Positions 1-38,666 of a stretch of DNA of 38,666 nucleotides are shown one piece after another. How positions within the stretch are numbered: position 1 is the first letter of the stretch; the number at the start of each line of letters is the position of its first letter. The stretch comes from a virus (lineage: Duplodnaviria; Heunggongvirae; Uroviricota; Caudoviricetes). The stretch lies in the IMG/VR virus record IMGVR_UViG_2609459854_000001, positions 1 to 38,666 of that record; one strand, given 5' to 3'. The translations under genes and the position numbers were made by a program. The notes below the pieces were generated by a model. It was not told the origin of the DNA, did not search any database, and saw only the letters and a list, made by a program, of their open reading frames with translations.

Positions 1-960
1 TTATGAAAATAAATATGACTTTTTATCCCATAGGATTTGATCATGATTCATTGTTGGGCACTGAAGATCATTTGCTAAGAAAGAAGGATATTTCGTTGTA
101 TTAAAAATGCTTGAGAAATTAGAGTGCATCGGGCTATTAAATATCTCACTCCCATATTGAGCTACGAGTAAAATATGAATGGCAGCTACTGCATTTATTA
201 CAGCGTTAAGAGATGCCTTTTGCTTGTTTGTTCCGCGATTATGCTTAACTGCATTATATGCGTCATACCAAGTCAAACTAGTAGTTGGTTTAGATTCATC
301 CCAACCACTAAATGGGCACCACTCTTGCAAATATGGATAGTAAACGAGCCTCGTAGAATACCCATCTAATTTCAGCAAACCAAGAGATTTAACATAATCG
401 TTAGTACTAAATCTATTGTTGTTAACAGTGTAACCATTATCTGTAAGAAAATTGTGAAGTAAGTATTCAACCTCAGTACATGCAATAATTAATATTTCTC
501 TGATTTTATTACCAAAACAACTCAAATTACCAGTATCAGGATCTATATAGTTAAATAATTCATTTAATGAATCACATATATTATTAAAAGACCTTACTTC
601 ATCAAGGATTCGTGCCTCCGCTATTTGTTGGTTATATAGTTTTGGTTCTCCTCTATTCATTCTAGGGTAGAATATTCCTGCTTCTGTTTTTTTAGATAAA
701 CTGATAACTATAGGTTGGTATGGACAACGATCAAAGCATTGATTCCAAGAAAAATAACCAATCGCCTTTGCTATTTCATCTGTTTTTATTGCATCAGGAT
801 ATGTTTCATTATAGTTATCCTTTCCTCGTTGCCAATGACTCCATTGGTAGTAGGTTACTTTAGGGAATAAACCAGTGTTAATGTATAAAAAACAATCCTC
901 ACCATTGCGTTGAAAAAAGCCAAATACATTTCCTTTCAATTCAAAAGTATAGCTTTCCAT
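1..960 (-). CDS. hypothetical cargo protein (319 aa), function unknown; candidate accessory/defence gene next to the integrase
   Basis: Complete ORF (ATG at 958-960, TAA at 1-3); visibly AT-rich compared with the phage structural genes; no HExxH, P-loop or other motif I recognise; occupies the position where e14 carries lit. Confidence 0.5.
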   Translation of the reverse strand: MESYTFELKGNVFGFFQRNGEDCFLYINTGLFPKVTYYQWSHWQRGKDNYNETYPDAIKTDEIAKAIGYFSWNQCFDRCPYQPIVISLSKKTEAGIFYPRMNRGEPKLYNQQIAEARILDEVRSFNNICDSLNELFNYIDPDTGNLSCFGNKIREILIIACTEVEYLLHNFLTDNGYTVNNNRFSTNDYVKSLGLLKLDGYSTRLVYYPYLQEWCPFSGWDESKPTTSLTWYDAYNAVKHNRGTNKQKASLNAVINAVAAIHILLVAQYGSEIFNSPMHSNFSSIFNTTKYPSFLANDLQCPTMNHDQILWDKKSYLFS

Positions 961-1316: not shown

Positions 1317-2447
1317 TCACAATGCTACTTTGCTCCATCCTTTGCCTCGATCATCATGGTAACGATCGGTCTGCTGTTGTGTTTTATGACCAAGTAATTT
1401 TTGCGTATCTAACCCCTGTTCTTTGTACAGGCGTTCAGATAAAGACCTTTGTTCATGGAATGTGGCAGGTGAGCCATCCCCCCAGTCAATCCCTGCTAAA
1501 TCCCTTGCTTTACTAAAATTCATCGTCAATGTATTGGATTTAATCTGTGCACCACGTTCTGCTTGTGAGGTTGAACGGAAAAAATGCACCAAGTATGGGC
1601 TCACTGCGTAGTCACGGCAGCGAGCTACTACATCTCGTAGGCTCCAATTGATAGCATTCAAACGTAGAGAAAGAGGGATAGCGATTTTGCTTCCAGTCTT
1701 TTCCTGAATGACGTGAAGATGATCCTCCCAAATATCACTAAATTTCATTTTGGATATATCTCCCAAACGCTGCCCAGTGACCAAAGCTAGGAGCATGGCA
1801 TTTCCCATATAACGATGAGTGGCGTCTGCGATATCGAATATTTTTTGCCATTCTTCCAGGCTGAGGCGTTGACGGGTAATTTTCCGTCTGGGTTGCTTCG
1901 TCGCAAGAGCAGGGTTATACCCTGGCGGAACTTCGCCATAATGCTGTGCTTCCTTAAATACATCGATCAATACAGACCTTACGACTTGCGCCATTCTCGG
2001 CTGCCCGGCAGCGATATACTCGTCAAGCAATTGTGCTATATCTCTTACATCAACGGCTGAGATCAACTTCATTCCTGCTCGTTCTCTGAGCAAGGATACT
2101 GGTTTAGCTTTTTGCTTATAGGTGTTGAGTCTTATATCACCACTTTTAAGCCTGTCATCCTGGATCGCTTGATAGCGATCTAACCAGGTTGACGTTGTGA
2201 TAGCCTTTCCTTTGCTGGTTGCGATCCTGTCACTGATAGCCAGAATCTGCCGGGTTCTTTGTTCAGCCAGGCGAGTGTTGGCCTCAGTGGCAATAGCGAT
2301 AGCTTCAGCTTCGTTTGTTCCCAAAGCATGGAATTTTCCTGTTACTGGATGCTTATACCGCCAATAGACTTTATTTACCTTCCTACTATAAAGCGGATAT
2401 AAGTTAGGGACTGAAACATTATTCTTACGCGGTCTGGCTGCCATCAC
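1317..2447 (-). CDS. tyrosine site-specific integrase (lambda Int family)
   Basis: 376-aa ORF with lambda-Int-like N-terminal arm and C-terminal catalytic domain; directly followed by an overlapping Xis-like gene. Confidence 0.9.
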   Translation of the reverse strand: MMAARPRKNNVSVPNLYPLYSRKVNKVYWRYKHPVTGKFHALGTNEAEAIAIATEANTRLAEQRTRQILAISDRIATSKGKAITTSTWLDRYQAIQDDRLKSGDIRLNTYKQKAKPVSLLRERAGMKLISAVDVRDIAQLLDEYIAAGQPRMAQVVRSVLIDVFKEAQHYGEVPPGYNPALATKQPRRKITRQRLSLEEWQKIFDIADATHRYMGNAMLLALVTGQRLGDISKMKFSDIWEDHLHVIQEKTGSKIAIPLSLRLNAINWSLRDVVARCRDYAVSPYLVHFFRSTSQAERGAQIKSNTLTMNFSKARDLAGIDWGDGSPATFHEQRSLSERLYKEQGLDTQKLLGHKTQQQTDRYHDDRGKGWSKVAL

Positions 2448-2670
2448 TCAAAATCCGTTGCAAAAGTAATGAGTCATTTTTCTTAATTATTGGCGTTACC
2501 AACTCCCCAACTAATTCGGCGTCCTCACGCACTCGCCATAACCGACCTTGTTTCATGGCCGGTGGGCAAAATAAATTCTGCTTAGCATAACGACGCAATG
2601 TGGACACGCTTGGAGGATTGCTTCTGTATTTTTCAGTAGCCCATTCTTCAAGAGTTAACATTTGAAGCAT
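2425..2670 (-). CDS. excisionase (Xis-like)
   Basis: 81-aa ORF overlapping the integrase start; MLQMLTLEEW...RRYAK...FCPP resembles lambda Xis winged-helix. Confidence 0.7.
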   Translation of the reverse strand: MLQMLTLEEWATEKYRSNPPSVSTLRRYAKQNLFCPPAMKQGRLWRVREDAELVGELVTPIIKKNDSLLLQRILSDGSQTA

Positions 2671-32155: not shown

Positions 32156-32794
32156 ATGCATCGTATAGACACGAAAACCGCGCAGAAGGATAAGTTCGGC
32201 GCGGGTAAGAACGGTTTTACCCGTGGTAACCCCCAGACCGGCACGCCTGCCACCGATCTGGATGATGACTACTTTGACATGTTGCAGGAAGAGCTCTGCA
32301 GCGTGGTGGAGGCATCCGGTGCCAGCCTGGAGAAGGGGCGGCATGACCAGCTGCTTACCGCGCTTCGTGCGCTGCTGTTAAGTCGCAAAAATCCGTTTGG
32401 CGATATCAAATCGGACGGCACGGTGAAAACGGCTCTTCAAAACCTTGGTTTGGGAGAATTATCTCTGGCTGGCACTGCATCGGGTGTCATTGGTCTGAAT
32501 GGGTATGTAACGATTCCGTTAATTATTTCAGGTTCCCGGAGAACACTGATTATTCAGTGGGGGCAGGCGAGATTTGGTGGGTCTGGTGGTGAAGATGCCG
32601 GATATCTTAATGATTTTCCTTTTGCCTTTCCGTCAGCATGTTATGGAATGATAGTTAGTCATGTGGGGCATACACCTTCAGGCGCAGGAATCCTGTCGGC
32701 TTCTGCAATTACATCAAATCAGTTCCGCGGTTTTTCAAGCATAGCGACTGCTGCAAATGCTGTATTAGGTCGTTATATCGCTATAGGGGGTTAA
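32156..32794 (+). CDS. tail fibre protein (constant N-terminal part fused to the currently expressed variable C-terminal cassette)
   Basis: 212 aa; a recombination crossover site lies at codons 94-101 (NLGLGE), so the C-terminal 112 aa is the invertible cassette. Confidence 0.7.
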   Translation: MHRIDTKTAQKDKFGAGKNGFTRGNPQTGTPATDLDDDYFDMLQEELCSVVEASGASLEKGRHDQLLTALRALLLSRKNPFGDIKSDGTVKTALQNLGLGELSLAGTASGVIGLNGYVTIPLIISGSRRTLIIQWGQARFGGSGGEDAGYLNDFPFAFPSACYGMIVSHVGHTPSGAGILSASAITSNQFRGFSSIATAANAVLGRYIAIGG

Positions 32795-32795
32795 T

Positions 32796-33233
32796 ATGTT
32801 TTATAGTCCATCATTAAACATTTTTGTGAATCCTGCGCTTAAGGATGATTACATTAATGCAAATTCATGGCCAGATGATGCTCTGGCTGTCAGTGATGAT
32901 GTTTATAATGAATTTGCAATCAATACGCCCCCATATGACAAAATTCGTGTTGCAGGAAAAAATGGATTACCCACATGGGCACTAATACCTCCACCATCGC
33001 ATGAAGAACTTATTCAACAGGCAGAATCAGAAAGGCAATTATTGCTTAATCAGGCCAACGAATACATGAACAGTAAACAATGGCCCGGTAAAGCCGCTAT
33101 TGGTCGTCTGAAAGACGAGGAACTGGCACTATATAATTTGTGGCTGGATTACCTGGACGCACTGGAACTGGTGGATACCTCCAGTGCTCCAGATATTGAA
33201 TGGCCTACACCTCCGGTAACTCAGGCCAGCTAA
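32796..33233 (+). CDS. tail fibre assembly protein (current orientation)
   Basis: 145 aa directly after the tail fibre; C-terminal ...EWPTPP... is typical of Tfa chaperones. Confidence 0.7.
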   Translation: MFYSPSLNIFVNPALKDDYINANSWPDDALAVSDDVYNEFAINTPPYDKIRVAGKNGLPTWALIPPPSHEELIQQAESERQLLLNQANEYMNSKQWPGKAAIGRLKDEELALYNLWLDYLDALELVDTSSAPDIEWPTPPVTQAS

Positions 33234-33630
33234 TCTCAGGAGCCGTCGAAGTGTCGACGGCTTTTACTTCTTTTTTGTAGTCCATCCAGGCGGATAGTTT
33301 TTCTTTATCTGTACTGCTGATATCACCAAGCATTAATTCCACTCGCCAGTCAGCTGTGACATTATCGGCATGAGCAAGTAACTGCATTCGCTGATTTTCA
33401 GCACGTGCGACATAATCAATCGCCGGAGATTTCAGTACCGGTAAACCATTTTCATCTGACGTGATTAATTTACCCCCTTCCTGCTGTCCGGCAATTAATT
33501 CATTGTATAAGTCTGTACTTATCTCAACAATGTCAGCAGGCATGTCGCTGTTTATACCATCAAAGAAAAAACCATTAGTCGATTTTGAGAAATAAATCAT
33601 AGATATACCTATACACCGATTGCTACCCAA
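33205..33630 (-). CDS. alternative tail fibre assembly protein (inverted orientation)
   Basis: 141 aa on the opposite strand, convergent with the first Tfa; C-terminal ...ISWPELPEV. Confidence 0.65.
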   Translation of the reverse strand: MGSNRCIGISMIYFSKSTNGFFFDGINSDMPADIVEISTDLYNELIAGQQEGGKLITSDENGLPVLKSPAIDYVARAENQRMQLLAHADNVTADWRVELMLGDISSTDKEKLSAWMDYKKEVKAVDTSTAPEISWPELPEV

Positions 33631-33986
33631 AAACAGGACCTTTCATATTTGACAATTTCTCCCTGAGATATACCGCCAACAATTATATAGAACTGTGATT
33701 TGGTGATATCAGAACAGTTCGCAATGCCCATTGCAGATATACCAGCCAACGACGTTGTATGTGGCACAGCCAACAGCGCAAGTGAACGATTTGGGAATGT
33801 TACCGGGTAAGTCACCGTATAGTTTGATGCTCCACTGACAATACCCCACTGAATAATCAGACCTGAAGGGAGTTTTTGAAAACCCGTTGATGAAAGTGAA
33901 CTGGCAAACGCCGCCATATCCGGAATTTGGTTTTGCCCGTTACCTACATTCCGTTTTGCCGCTTCTCCCAAACCAACGTTTATGAA
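33609..33986 (-). CDS. alternative promoterless tail-fibre C-terminal cassette (Sv-prime-like)
   Basis: Minus-strand frame reads ...FINVGLGE... across the crossover site and continues 120 codons; would fuse to the constant fibre N-terminus after inversion. Confidence 0.55.
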   Translation of the reverse strand, partial: FINVGLGEAAKRNVGNGQNQIPDMAAFASSLSSTGFQKLPSGLIIQWGIVSGASNYTVTYPVTFPNRSLALLAVPHTTSLAGISAMGIANCSDITKSQFYIIVGGISQGEIVKYERSCFWVAIGV

Positions 33987-34042
33987 AATGCAGAAATAAC
34001 GAGAAAATGGCATCATTCCTGCTTTTGTCAGAGGGAGCTACC

Positions 34043-34234
34043 ATGCTTATTGGCTATGTTTGCGTATCAACAAATGACCAGAAAATCGATCTACAACGTA
34101 ATGCGTTTAACTGTGCAGGATGCGAGCTGATTTTTGAAGACAAGATAAGCGGTACAAAGTCCGAGAGCCTAGGGCTGACAGTGCTGTTCTTGATGCAAAT
34201 TAAAGGATTTAATAGTGAGTTGCGGCCTTACTAA
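34043..34234 (+). pseudogene. truncated Gin/Hin/Pin-family serine DNA invertase (N-terminal ~50 codons only)
   Basis: MLIGYVCVSTNDQKIDLQRNAFNCAGCELIFEDKISGTK... matches the invertase N-terminus including the catalytic Ser, then diverges and stops; the rest is replaced by the 3' end of the convergent DUF262/DUF1524 gene. Confidence 0.7.
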
Positions 34235-34267: not shown

Positions 34268-36157
34268 TTAATCGTATTTTGGCCATACTTTCAATGCAAT
34301 TTCCCCCAACTTTTTACCTCGCTCCAGTATTTCACTCTCATCCCATTTATCCTTAAGTATAAGTGGTATGTTCAGTCGTAGATTGGTGTGGACGATGAGA
34401 GCATCACGTTTTTTCAGAAATACAGCATTCTGAACGGAACGGTTTACGCTAAGGTTAAGCAAAGTTAGATTTCCCAACGTAGCTATCGCTTGTTGCCGTT
34501 TCCTTACCAGTAGCTGTTCAGGGGTAAGATCGGTTCCAGACAGAACAATTTGGTTCATTACCGTAGCATCTGAATTTGTCACCATATGACCATTTTCGAG
34601 AGGCCAACAGGAATACCAACTTTGAGGCATAAGATGATCGATATCGAGATTAGAAAGATTTGGAACATCAGGCTTTTCTGTCTTCACTTGGCGACAAAGT
34701 TCTCTTTCAAGTTCCGTTAACATTGAGCGCATTTTCGGTGCGTCGAGCCTGCCAGGATAAAGTGGAGCATTGATGCAAGCGTTGAGAAATTCTGAGTCCC
34801 CAGGCCAACGTGAGGCTTCGCCATTTAAGCTATTGAGGATATTACGTAACTCAACACTGGAAATTTCCGTTTTAGACAAGTGTCGCAATACATTCATAAA
34901 TACATTGTTGTAATTCTTTGGCGTCAGGCCACATACGGATCTTCGTACTACGTAGGAGACAAGATCATTATACATGGCTGCTTTCTCATCATCGGCGATG
35001 TTAGCTATCGAAATGAACAAAGCAAGCGGATAGAGTGTCGTCACATCATAGGCTGCGATGCGATGTCTAAAGTGTGAGATGGGGGTTGTGCCAAAACCAC
35101 CAACCAATTCTTTATATTGTGATGCATATTGTTTGAGGCGCTTTACTTGCAGATCTGCTCGTTGTGAAGGCAAGTCCTTACTTACATAATCACGATACTC
35201 ATTGTAAAGGCGAGACAGATCAATTTCACGCTGCCTTTCTGATTGCAATGTCGCATGTACAAGCCACTCCATGCGTGGTTTATTAATACGTCCACGGCGT
35301 TGCTTTTCCGACCAGTATTTATCTTCAAAGATCTTCCACTCATTTTCATATAATTCAATAGCATTAATATTTTCATGCTCAGCGCACATAAAGATATAGT
35401 TGCGAATAAGATCCGTTGCATGAAGTTCCGCTCCTCGCCCATTTAATGTTTCAAAAATTATTTGGGCATCATCTTCAGCTTCGAGAAATATGCTTACCAG
35501 TTTCAGATCCGTCAAGACAGCCTCAATTAGTGCTACAGCATTTTCTTGTGGTGAGTGTTTTTCTATTTTAATCCATTTTATAAAGGCTTCAGTAAAAAAC
35601 CATAATGCCTCTAGTGACGGCGGGTGGTTGAAATGTTTACGTAACGTACCATGTTGCGTGAAGCTATCAGAAAATACATTACGGAGATCGTCAATATTAT
35701 CAACATTAAGACTTTGAATAAAATGAGTTTGATCTCGAAAAGTTGGCCACAGTTTGAAGCATTCTACCTTTTTATTTCTCATCGTTGCTTCGTTTGTATT
35801 TTTCAAGCAAGTCAATACTAACCCTTCCAGTTCAGAAAGGCCTGTAGCACGCAATGATAATCGAATGGATGCCAGAATATATTGAAGAGTGGTTAAACGT
35901 TGCTGGCCGTCAATAATATGTATGGTATCTACACCTAACAAGCTGTTTTTGAGTTGAGGTTCCAGCACCACCGCGCCGAGGAAATGAGGGGTTGGTTTTG
36001 TTCCCGAAAGTCGGCTCTGTGCTTTTTCGAAGATATCCTCCAACAAAGCTGACCATTGGTTTCGTTGCGTCCATACGTAGGCACGTTGATAGAATGGAAC
36101 ACGATATTGTCGTTGATTTTGGAAAATTTGCTGGATGGTTAGCGTTTCGGATTTCAT
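34268..36157 (-). CDS. DUF262/DUF1524 (GmrSD-like) type IV restriction endonuclease
   Basis: 629 aa; N-terminal ...FYQRAYVWT...IIDGQQRLTTL... (DUF262 DGQQR motif) and C-terminal ...DIDHLMPQSW...GNLTLLNLSVNRS... (DUF1524 His-Me finger); AT-rich; AGGTAA RBS. Confidence 0.8.
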   Translation of the reverse strand: MKSETLTIQQIFQNQRQYRVPFYQRAYVWTQRNQWSALLEDIFEKAQSRLSGTKPTPHFLGAVVLEPQLKNSLLGVDTIHIIDGQQRLTTLQYILASIRLSLRATGLSELEGLVLTCLKNTNEATMRNKKVECFKLWPTFRDQTHFIQSLNVDNIDDLRNVFSDSFTQHGTLRKHFNHPPSLEALWFFTEAFIKWIKIEKHSPQENAVALIEAVLTDLKLVSIFLEAEDDAQIIFETLNGRGAELHATDLIRNYIFMCAEHENINAIELYENEWKIFEDKYWSEKQRRGRINKPRMEWLVHATLQSERQREIDLSRLYNEYRDYVSKDLPSQRADLQVKRLKQYASQYKELVGGFGTTPISHFRHRIAAYDVTTLYPLALFISIANIADDEKAAMYNDLVSYVVRRSVCGLTPKNYNNVFMNVLRHLSKTEISSVELRNILNSLNGEASRWPGDSEFLNACINAPLYPGRLDAPKMRSMLTELERELCRQVKTEKPDVPNLSNLDIDHLMPQSWYSCWPLENGHMVTNSDATVMNQIVLSGTDLTPEQLLVRKRQQAIATLGNLTLLNLSVNRSVQNAVFLKKRDALIVHTNLRLNIPLILKDKWDESEILERGKKLGEIALKVWPKYD

Positions 36158-36413
36158 TGTTTACCTATAAATAACATTAAGTGACATTCCACAAGAGTAA
36201 GAAATTCATCTGAGTCAGAACAATCATTTTTATGTAGTTATGATACAGTGTATTTGTTACTGGTGAAGTAAAAATAAGAAACCCCGCTTTTGAATGCTGA
36301 CGCGCTACGGTTTCATTGGATATTTTTTGTCTCTCCTCCATCCCGTTGGTGTTCTGTTTAGACTGATAACTTGCTGTTTTAATTGATATTAGTTTCTTGC
36401 GCCGCCCAATCAT

Positions 36414-36439
36414 GGTTGGTGGGTTGGTGGGTTGGTGGG
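36414..36439 (+). repeat. G-rich tandem repeat (GGTTGGTG)x3
   Basis: ggttggtgggttggtgggttggtggg in the AT-rich region upstream of the restriction gene; four GG/GGG tracts. Confidence 0.4.
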
Positions 36440-36975
36440 AGTTAAATCCACATTGGTATGAATAACATAGAATATGAATTAGTGTTTCAGAATTGCTTCA
36501 GCCATCACTTTTTAATACGTTCAATTTGAATGTTTATTTCCGAAACAATTTTTTCAGGTTTCAGTCCCTCGTTAGATTGCACAAAATCTCTAATTTGCAT
36601 CATTCGATGTGCACAAATTTGTAATTCGCTATAAACACTTAGCTCGTCAGATTCATTTTGAGATTGTTCACCTGTTTAAAATTCTACATAAGTATGTGGC
36701 GGATTGTGATAAACACGAGAAATCGGGGTTGGCCACCATTCCTCACCGGTCACTACGTCCGCATCGAATAGTACAGTTTTGTCAATTTCCATTAATTTCT
36801 GGATAAGAACAGAAGTTTTCAAGCGAACCTCCATTTTGCCATAAAGTGGTTATCAAAACGCTACGTAAACTATACAAAATCAGCGAGTTATGGTGAAGGT
36901 AAAAAAACAAGTTTAGATGTTCGTTAAGTATAAAATTGTTTTAATTCAATTGGATATAATAATTTTCTAAATCTA

Positions 36976-37140
36976 ATGTTACGCCATATGGGTTGGACTG
37001 AAGCGGCTGACCTGATTGTTAAAGGTATGGAAGGCGCAATCAATGCGAAGACCGTAACCTATGACTTCGAGCGTCTGATGGAAGGCGCTAAACTGCTGAA
37101 ATGTTCAGAATTTGGTGATGCGATCATCAAGAACATGTAA
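36976..37140 (+). pseudogene. icdC: orphan 3' fragment of isocitrate dehydrogenase gene (icdC-like), marking the prophage right attachment site
   Basis: Encodes [54 protein letters not shown], recognisable as the Icd C-terminus, with no upstream icd body; 165 nt, the length replaced on e14 integration. Confidence 0.75.
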
Positions 37141-37162
37141 TCACTACATGTGTTTAATATTG

Positions 37163-37194
37163 CAACGGGCGTATAACACGCCCGTTGTTTTATT
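37163..37194 (+). terminator. intrinsic terminator following the icd 3' fragment
   Basis: caacgggcg-tataaca-cgcccgttg (9-bp stem) followed by TTTTATTT. Confidence 0.6.
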
Positions 37195-37242
37195 TATGTA
37201 GGTATTATTAATAGCATATCGAGCATATTTATATAAAACCCT

Positions 37243-37566
37243 TTACTTGAGCCCATATGGGCATATTTTTATAATGCAACTATTATGCAAACATTTATTT
37301 GTTATTTTGCTTTCTCCTGGAGGACACTCTTGACTGCTTTTGAGTAGACTCCATAAATCCTTGTTGAATGGTGCGATGTTATAAATAGTAATAGGATATT
37401 CTTTATCTTTAAGGATAATTCCAGATTTAACCGGTGTAAATATACTGCCAGGAGGGAGAAATATAGTAGATTGATACCAGATGATCATTTTCATATTACC
37501 CCATATGGCTGAAAAAGATATGCCGCATGAAGGTTGAATTATCGTGTCAATTACTATCCACTTCAT
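37243..37566 (-). CDS. iraM: IraM-like anti-adaptor protein (host gene)
   Basis: 107 aa, [32 protein letters not shown]...; matches my recollection of E. coli IraM, which lies just beyond icdC in K-12. Confidence 0.55.
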
Positions 37567-38022
37567 TTGTTATGTCTTATCCCACGGTATTTAATATAGT
37601 TCATTTGGATGTTCATTTCTTTATTTTGCATATGAGTATATTACCCCTTCAAAAAATAAATTAATTAAAACGATTGCTTATATAAAACAAAATTTAAAGC
37701 AAGGAATCTCAATGGATGTTAAACAAAATGAGATTTAGTGAAAACAATAAATTATTCACTTCGTTTTAGATTTGTTTAGCTATAATGTTATACATTCAAA
37801 TGACTGAACATCCTGTAATTAAAACATAGCCTTTATGCTACTTTGTGCCAATTTGCTAAACATTATGGTTGCCTTTTTATATAACGATAATAATGAATAT
37901 AAGCATGACATGAGAATAAGGTTTCAATTTTTGAGTTATATAGGAAAGGTTTAACCTGTTCCTGGCTAAAATACATATAACTGGATGATGACTAAACCAA
38001 AACACATGTGCGTTAAGTATTG

Positions 38023-38052
38023 AAACGGGCGTATGGCACACCCGTTGTTTTT
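38023..38052 (+). terminator. second, imperfect copy of the icd-terminator hairpin
   Basis: aaacgggcgtatggcacacccgttgttttt; flanking sequence also resembles that around 37150-37195. Confidence 0.35.
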
Positions 38053-38261
38053 ATAAATATATTAACCGTTATAAAATAACGTATAGAAAGTCAAGTGATC
38101 ACATTTCAAATATCAATTTGATAGTATTGGCATGGTGATTATTTATGGGTAGCAATAAAAGGACAGTATTTATCATCCATAGGGATAGTCTCTGTACTTT
38201 TATTCCCATTATGCTAATGCCTTACTGAATTATGAAGCATTTCTTAAGCATCCAACTTTAG

Positions 38262-38666
38262 CTAGATTAATGGTTTATTATTTTCTACATCTTCAATATA
38301 TAAAAGCGTATTATCAATGGCGTAGTAACTGCGTTTGTTATGATTAACATCAGTAACCCACCGGAAAACGCCCGCGCCTGCTAGTGTTGAACAGTATTCC
38401 CGAAATGTAGATTTTCCGCAAATATGAAGCAATGCGGCCTCTTTTATTTTAGCAGGGTTCTTGGTCGTACTAACTTTTAACAGGTTCCTGGTTCCTCTTA
38501 ATAACAAAACCGTGTCATCGTGAGTAATAATTCTGATGTTATCCGTAGCCAGATAATAAATGTAATGTGCAATACGGTGATGTTTTAATTCTGAATAAAA
38601 CCAGGAGAAGTTTTGCTCTTTTCTCACTTGCTCAAACATCTTTTGAAAAACAACGACCTGATCCAT
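38262..38666 (-). CDS. hypothetical host protein (YcgX-like, 134 aa)
   Basis: ORF starts with Met at the window edge; AT-rich; size and position match the K-12 gene after iraM; identity not verified. Confidence 0.4.
   Translation of the reverse strand: MDQVVVFQKMFEQVRKEQNFSWFYSELKHHRIAHYIYYLATDNIRIITHDDTVLLLRGTRNLLKVSTTKNPAKIKEAALLHICGKSTFREYCSTLAGAGVFRWVTDVNHNKRSYYAIDNTLLYIEDVENNKPLI

Follow-up and report, generated by a model that had tools for sequence, protein, structure and literature searches.

The stretch of DNA analysed here (38,666 nt, positions 1 to 38,666 of the Caudoviricetes record IMGVR_UViG_2609459854_000001 in IMG/VR; hereafter the window) is prophage DNA up to position 36975 and carries a 3' fragment of the isocitrate dehydrogenase gene (icd) directly to the right of it. 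The features that matter for the interpretation are as follows.

1-36975, no strand: prophage DNA, the right-hand 94% of an e14-family phage of about 39.3 kb
1-960, minus strand: gene for a 319-aa protein with a HEPN-like helical domain, cargo of the attL end
1317-2447, minus strand: intE, lambda-type tyrosine integrase with an arm-binding domain (Pfam)
2425-2670, minus strand: xisE, excisionase (Pfam Exc, 7.6e-12)
34043-34170, plus strand: remnant of the pin DNA invertase gene, about its first 42 codons, ending at the cargo junction
34268-36157, minus strand: gene for a GmrSD-family type IV (modification-dependent) restriction enzyme, cargo of the attR end
36848-36858, plus strand: putative arm-type integrase site GGTTATCAAAA in the P arm of attR, assigned by position and conservation
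36878-36890, plus strand: IHF-like sequence AATCAGCGAGTTA, differing from WATCAANNNNTTR at one position and located between arm site and core
36976-36986, no strand: common core ATGTTACGCCA, 11 bp, the only attL/attR identity at this place and the right prophage boundary
36976-37140, plus strand: orphan icd 3' fragment (Icd codons 363-416 and stop), an icdC-type pseudogene and very probably the B' side of attR
37162-37198, plus strand: intrinsic terminator of the resident icd, with an 11-bp stem, a 5-nt loop and a T run

The prophage genes are arranged in the order cargo, int, xis, immunity, replication, lysis, head, contractile tail, invertible tail-fibre segment, pin remnant, cargo and P arm. 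The region is chromosomal DNA of E. coli. The nearest genome, that of strain CFSAN061769 (NZ_CP042969.1), matches the full length of the window with 99.98% identity, except for one inversion and a difference in an 8-bp repeat. A genome with 100% identity does not occur in the E. coli collection. Other genomes, in which the tail-fibre segment is oriented as in the window, are 99.7% identical. The 8-bp tandem unit TTGGTGGG (around 36420-36440) is present in two copies in the window versus three in CFSAN061769; apart from the inversion, this copy number is the only length difference between the two. From core to core the element measures 39,339 bp in CFSAN061769, and 39,331 bp are projected for the window. 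Read in the orientation of the window (the record runs opposite), CFSAN061769 carries rluE, a full-length icd, KwaA, KwaB, the 319-aa hypothetical protein, intE and xisE, followed by immunity, replication, lysis, head, contractile-tail and invertible tail-fibre genes. At its right end are a partial recombinase, a DUF262 protein and a partial dehydrogenase, and then iraM, ymgK, ymgL, ycgX and bluR.

The integration genes are of the e14 type. The intE product contains the Pfam domains Arm-DNA-bind_1 (1.3e-37) and Phage_integrase (3.9e-18) and is identical to K-12 IntE at 366 of 375 residues (98%), while its identity with the Int protein of phage 21 is 60% (222/372). XisE is identical to its K-12 counterpart at 78 of 81 residues. 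Other blocks of the window also match K-12 e14; the int-xis, immunity, terminase-portal and baseplate-tail fibre regions and the 5' end of pin are 90-98% identical. Because these surviving parts of e14 match the window so closely, K-12 e14 looks like a deletion derivative of such a phage. No Rfam family was matched anywhere in the window.

The tail-fibre segment (32436-33986, 1.5 kb) is inverted relative to CFSAN061769 and is bounded by inverted repeats at 32440-32458 and 33963-33981; both orientations occur among close relatives. In the adjacent pin gene, the alignment with K-12 PinE stops after ...SGTKSE, and the DNA homology covers 33962-34164. The same remnant is annotated as a partial recombinase in CFSAN061769. 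Since only about 42 codons of pin are left, the inversion must either be catalysed in trans by another invertase or be older than the truncation of pin.

A related icd prophage is found in strain 8GC (NZ_CM136786.1, 2711000-2760000). It has e14-type int, xis, immunity and replication genes and att motifs, but its head and tail genes are those of a lambda-like siphovirus (gpJ, Lom, tape measure) and not of a contractile-tail phage. The e14 integration module thus travels on different virion modules. When the phage collection was searched with a 911-nt reconstructed e14-type attP, the matches were confined to the icd-like part of the query and came from phage 21, lambda/21 hybrids and their relatives; a free e14-type phage with an uninterrupted attP was not among them. 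The one myovirus hit, vB_EcoM-689R6, was rejected as a free phage, as it is a prophage region deposited with host flanks.

We then turn to the icd fragment. The sequence at 36976-37140 is an open frame of 54 codons plus stop (165 bases, plus strand) that begins with ATG. Its translation aligns end to end with residues 363-416 of the solved E. coli isocitrate dehydrogenase structures (E = 4.6e-30), and 52 of the 54 residues are identical. This is an identity far beyond chance. A tblastn search of the whole 38.7 kb with the complete 416-aa K-12 Icd yielded this fragment as the sole match (residues 362-416) and no icd body anywhere. In the NCBI annotation of CFSAN061769, the region corresponding to 36973-37140 is a pseudogene of an 'isocitrate/isopropylmalate family dehydrogenase, incomplete, missing N-terminus'. 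The homology to icd starts abruptly at 36976, and the preceding 60 nt are unrelated AT-rich DNA; the G+C content of 34268-36975 is 39.3% versus 49.4% for the window. The initial annotation had described this fragment as the Icd C-terminus, with an AT-rich restriction-gene region and no icd body upstream of it. That description is borne out: the translation is as it was written there and aligns to the icd 3' end over its whole length, Icd is matched within the window only at the orphan, and the AT-rich region contains a GmrSD-type type IV gene.

The left junction lies outside the window and was read in the relatives CFSAN061769 and 442/2. In CFSAN061769, the full-length icd is located about 2.2-3.4 kb to the left of the window start, with its stop codon 2,191 bp left of position 1. 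The final 165 nt of this icd form a gapless alignment with the orphan in which 22 positions differ, all of them synonymously, and both ends encode the same 54 residues. By Nei-Gojobori counting, dN is 0 and 65% of the 33.7 synonymous sites differ; when 22 substitutions were placed at random, the protein was unchanged in 0 of 200,000 trials. The attL-type end is therefore old and diverged and has been kept under strong selection for Icd function, which fits a copy that a phage brings along to make good the part it severs. The terminator and flank after icd in CFSAN061769 are the same as those after icd in K-12, where they belong to e14, and the divergent icd end with the matching left junction was also read in 442/2. 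Judging from these sequences, the attL-type icd end is the replacement supplied by the phage, as the initial annotation had proposed when it assigned a replacement 3' end to the other junction; the nearest genomes do have a full-length icd with a divergent end.

Three other statements of the initial annotation also held up and can be refined. It had placed the integrase at the far left, and an e14 integrase is indeed encoded at 1317-2447, but it does not mark the left end of the element, since attL and intE are separated by about 3.5 kb of cargo. The element was said to span almost the whole window; it fills 1-36975 but continues about 2.36 kb past the left edge. The full-length icd and matching left junction that were to be sought upstream were found, although in near-identical relatives and outside the window itself. 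The source genome's own left junction would be expected to match that of the relatives.

To see which icd end is the resident one, a query composed of 350 nt of the host icd body and window positions 36976-37400 was compared with complete E. coli genomes. At least 3,029 of 5,426 genomes contain icd body, orphan and iraM side as one continuous sequence; this number is a lower bound because unoccupied genomes without iraM fall under the coverage cut-off. In strain LD91-1 the query is matched without interruption at 100% identity, and icd and iraM are annotated side by side. In unoccupied genomes iraM, ymgL, ycgX and bluR directly follow icd. Since they are contiguous with the icd body in unoccupied genomes, the orphan, its terminator and the iraM side are resident sequence, and the prophage was therefore inserted to the left of the orphan. 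The word resident is relative here: some unoccupied genomes have icd ends with phage-21-type polymorphisms, and an earlier phage-supplied end could have given rise to the orphan itself.

Comparison of the two junctions locates the crossover. The attL and attR sequences are identical only over ATGTTACGCCA; the first mismatch on the right is at position 12, and on the left the host reads ...gctgagatg and the phage ...ttctaaatcta. On these alignments, the strand exchange must fall within the 11-bp core at 36976-36986, which is inside the range of about 36976-36990 given for the right boundary by the initial annotation. The 11-bp length follows directly from the sequences compared, and a 1988 paper by Brody and Hill reportedly gives a core of the same length. 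In K-12 the same 11-bp interval reads ATGCTGCGCCA at both junctions, a variant that is synonymous at Leu364. In 8GC both junctions read TGCTGCGCCA..., in which the first base differs, so the interval is narrowed to positions 2-11. In each of the three lysogens examined, the two junctions share one Leu364 allele of the core (CTG or TTA), and both alleles exist in unoccupied hosts.

The window has a single exact copy of the 10-mer GTTATCAAAA (36849-36858), which lies 127 bp to the left of the core. In K-12 e14 it lies 128 bp left of the core of attR, within DNA that is otherwise barely alignable, and it is also present in 8GC. At attL, three tandem copies of GTTATCAAAA follow the phage-borne icd terminator in K-12, CFSAN061769, 442/2 and 8GC. 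We infer that GTTATCAAAA is a putative arm-type site of IntE. Between this site and the core, AATCAGCGAGTTA is likely an IHF site, as predicted from its position and conservation; the aligned K-12 position reads AATCAATGAGTTA, a perfect match to WATCAANNNNTTR. The orphan together with about 130 bp on its left is almost certainly attR. A 113-aa ORF (36500-36834, minus strand) that matches no family is placed between restriction cargo and P arm in the window as well as in the 8GC prophage. It is interrupted in the window (...YVEF*TGEQS) and intact in 8GC (...YVEFETGEQS).

On the chromosomal side, window positions 36966-38666 are 95.8% identical to the icdC-iraM-ycgX region of K-12. The terminator at 37162-37198 is the only terminator-like site in 36700-38200, and unoccupied genomes have it after icd as well. 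A second copy of the icd terminator region (38009-38051, 84% identical to 37149-37191) follows 860 bp downstream, with iraM and ymgK enclosed between the two. In some genomes precisely this iraM-ymgK islet is missing, and a single terminator connects the first stem with the second flank. The 15-nt repeat at 36917-36931 and 38006-38020, considered as a trace of an older att site, is probably due to chance, as no longer alignment supports it.

From these data, we hold with high confidence that the orphan is the 3' end of the resident host icd, displaced when an e14-family prophage was inserted at codon 363. Other origins are conceivable for such a fragment. The two copies are indistinguishable at the protein level, with the same 54 residues in each, and the orphan might be the phage-borne copy, with the functional gene keeping its original end and the boundary lying to the right of 37140. 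That reading is refuted by the at least 3,029 prophage-free genomes in which the orphan, the terminator and the iraM side are joined to the icd body, with iraM, ymgL, ycgX and bluR adjoining icd; besides, it is the attL copy that carries the e14-type terminator and the triple GTTATCAAAA, both of which are also found in K-12 e14. We give it practically no credence. It is very improbable, too, that the orphan is the scar of a different, older icd element, for example of the phage 21 type, and that the 39 kb consist of two tandem elements. Up to four copies of the region do occur in some E. coli genomes, and phage 21-like phages use the same site. However, the window contains one Icd-like piece and the reference region only one attL and one attR, the arm motif next to the orphan is of the e14 type and matches that of attL, and the gene order between int and the tail fibres is that of a single, continuous phage genome with one integrase. 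The phage 21 motif YYTTCCCCAAAA has no match in the window when up to one mismatch is allowed.

The fragment begins with ATG and stays open for 54 codons, as an ORF arisen by chance or an independently expressed small protein would. Yet its similarity to Icd (E = 4.6e-30) speaks against the former, and its ATG is simply Met363 of Icd. No Shine-Dalgarno-like purine run precedes this ATG, and the equivalent ORF is treated as a pseudogene in the annotation of both K-12 and phage 21. A promoter scan found no more candidates around the orphan than in shuffled sequence, which leaves its expression without support. A chance or expressed ORF is scarcely credible, and we retain the reading of the orphan as the displaced resident icd end.

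The following mechanism can be proposed. On the circular phage, attP would consist of the P arm, the core, 54 icd codons with the stop codon, the terminator and the P' arm sites. IntE would exchange strands between the phage core and the identical 11 bp of the host icd. At attL the icd body would then read into the phage-supplied end, and the lysogen would keep a working isocitrate dehydrogenase; since both ends encode the same 54 residues, the Icd protein is unchanged in this strain. The displaced host end would be left at attR beside iraM, without a promoter and untranslated. On excision, IntE and XisE, probably with IHF, would recombine the two cores and rejoin the orphan to the icd body. 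The orphan would thus be a silent spare, needed only when the phage leaves.

Whether the spare still has this use depends on the prophage. It might be grounded, and the orphan a dead scar with no remaining role that is too young to have decayed: the pin invertase is truncated, the small ORF by the P arm is interrupted, and K-12 e14 itself is defective for growth as a phage. On the other hand, the nearest genome, CFSAN061769, has intact copies of intE and xisE, of the core, of the arm motifs at either end and of all annotated head, tail, lysis and replication genes. Even the defective K-12 e14 excises after SOS induction, which is described as known in a passage of PMC13626634 citing Brody, Greener and Hill. 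We consider a grounded element unlikely, and it would alter only the present activity of the fragment, not its identity or origin. The present copy would, we infer, still be able to excise, with the orphan as the displaced end that restores icd.

Both att-proximal ends of the prophage carry cargo. At the attR end, the product of 34268-36157 matches the Pfam domains GmrSD_N (1.4e-33) and GmrSD_C (3.8e-19) and is assigned by PADLOC to mREase_IV over its full length (1516 bits). The same slot is occupied by mcrA in K-12 and by a type II restriction-modification pair in 8GC. At the attL end, the 319-aa protein (1-960) is one of a family with over 600 members and is not matched by any defence-system model. 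In CFSAN061769 it is adjoined, outside the window, by the KwaA and KwaB genes of a Kiwa system; in K-12 this slot contains ymfD, ymfE and lit, and in 442/2 and 8GC it contains other genes. The CFSAN061769 gene before KwaB (43323-43703 of the region taken from that genome) encodes 126 aa that match only positions 80-204 of the 205-position KwaA profile. KwaA is therefore either N-terminally truncated or has a mis-called start, and Kiwa may not be intact in this genome. Tentatively, the att-proximal ends of e14-family prophages could be exchangeable slots for defence genes, the 319-aa protein could be a new single-gene abortive-infection or defence protein, and core matching could restrict the hosts that a given e14 variant can lysogenise; we regard these ideas as possible rather than probable.

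With the orphan identified, the right end of the prophage can be placed with a precision of 11 bp (36976-36986). Everything to the left of it in the window, the type IV restriction gene included, is mobile phage cargo, and the DNA from iraM onward is chromosome. The arrangement accounts for the lysogen not being mutant in icd and allows the exact attB and attP sequences after excision to be predicted. The e14 integration mechanism was described in 1988-89, and the e14/icdC arrangement is already known and routinely annotated; here it is found in a full-length e14 relative with different cargo. The finding repeats this mechanism and opens no new question by itself; what is added to the initial annotation is the exact core, the anatomy of attR and the observation that the integrase is not the left end.

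The closest known system is e14 of K-12 MG1655. Its icdC (b4519), at attR, is the same 165-bp fragment of icd codons 363-416 plus stop, directly before iraM: e14 is annotated at 1196209-1211412, icdC is the next 165 bp, and iraM follows, as in the window. In both elements the invertible tail-fibre segment and pin adjoin the cargo slot on the attR side. According to passages in PMC11148124, PMC6379469 and PMC13626634, e14 inserts after icd codon 362 and duplicates 165 bp as icdC, with differences of 12 nt and two amino acids (Glu to Asp), and its excision restores icd. The 12-nt and two-residue differences were reproduced in our own comparison of the K-12 sequences. The e14-type features found here are the orphan facing iraM, the IntE and XisE orthologues, the arm repeat with its spacing and, with the left junction read in the relatives, the replaced icd end and the shared core. 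There are also differences. The core reads ATGTTACGCCA in the window versus ATGCTGCGCCA in K-12, and the orphan differs from K-12 icdC by 10 nt and two residues (D410 and K414). The phage-supplied end is identical in protein sequence to the orphan here, whereas that of K-12 changes two residues from Glu to Asp. The present element is a complete-looking 39.3-kb phage, in contrast to the 15.2-kb remnant in K-12, and unlike K-12 e14 it has a truncated pin. The cargo of K-12 is McrA at attR and YmfD/YmfE/Lit at attL; here it is the GmrSD type IV enzyme, and Kiwa with the 319-aa HEPN-like protein, respectively.

Phage 21 (OL657228, M61865), which was sequenced as a free phage, has the same target at icd codon 363. 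Its attP has one YYTTCCCCAAAA P-arm site about 130 bp left of the core, a layout like that of the window, and about 17 nt beside the core on the P side are similar. The phage 21 core is at the start of an 'ICDH-like' pseudo-ORF of 165 nt (a 54-codon Icd end), which is followed by a terminator, three annotated P' sites, int and xis. However, phage 21 has an Int with 60% identity and the arm motif YYTTCCCCAAAA, which is absent from the window; it has no cargo between the P' sites and int, and its virion is lambda-like and not of the contractile-tail type. The window thus contains neither an orthologue of the phage 21-type integrase nor the YYTTCCCCAAAA arm sites of the phage 21-type icd integration module.

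More broadly, a passage in PMC6379469 sets out the principle of integration at 3' ends, by which a duplicate of the target's 3' part in the phage att site keeps the gene functional in the lysogen and a partial copy is displaced to the far junction. Phages that integrate into tRNA genes, such as DLP12 at argU, use the same principle of a duplicate end as the window. In contrast to these, the target here is a protein-coding gene, and the duplicate must therefore preserve the reading frame. The icd duplicate shows a dN of 0 against a near-saturated synonymous divergence.
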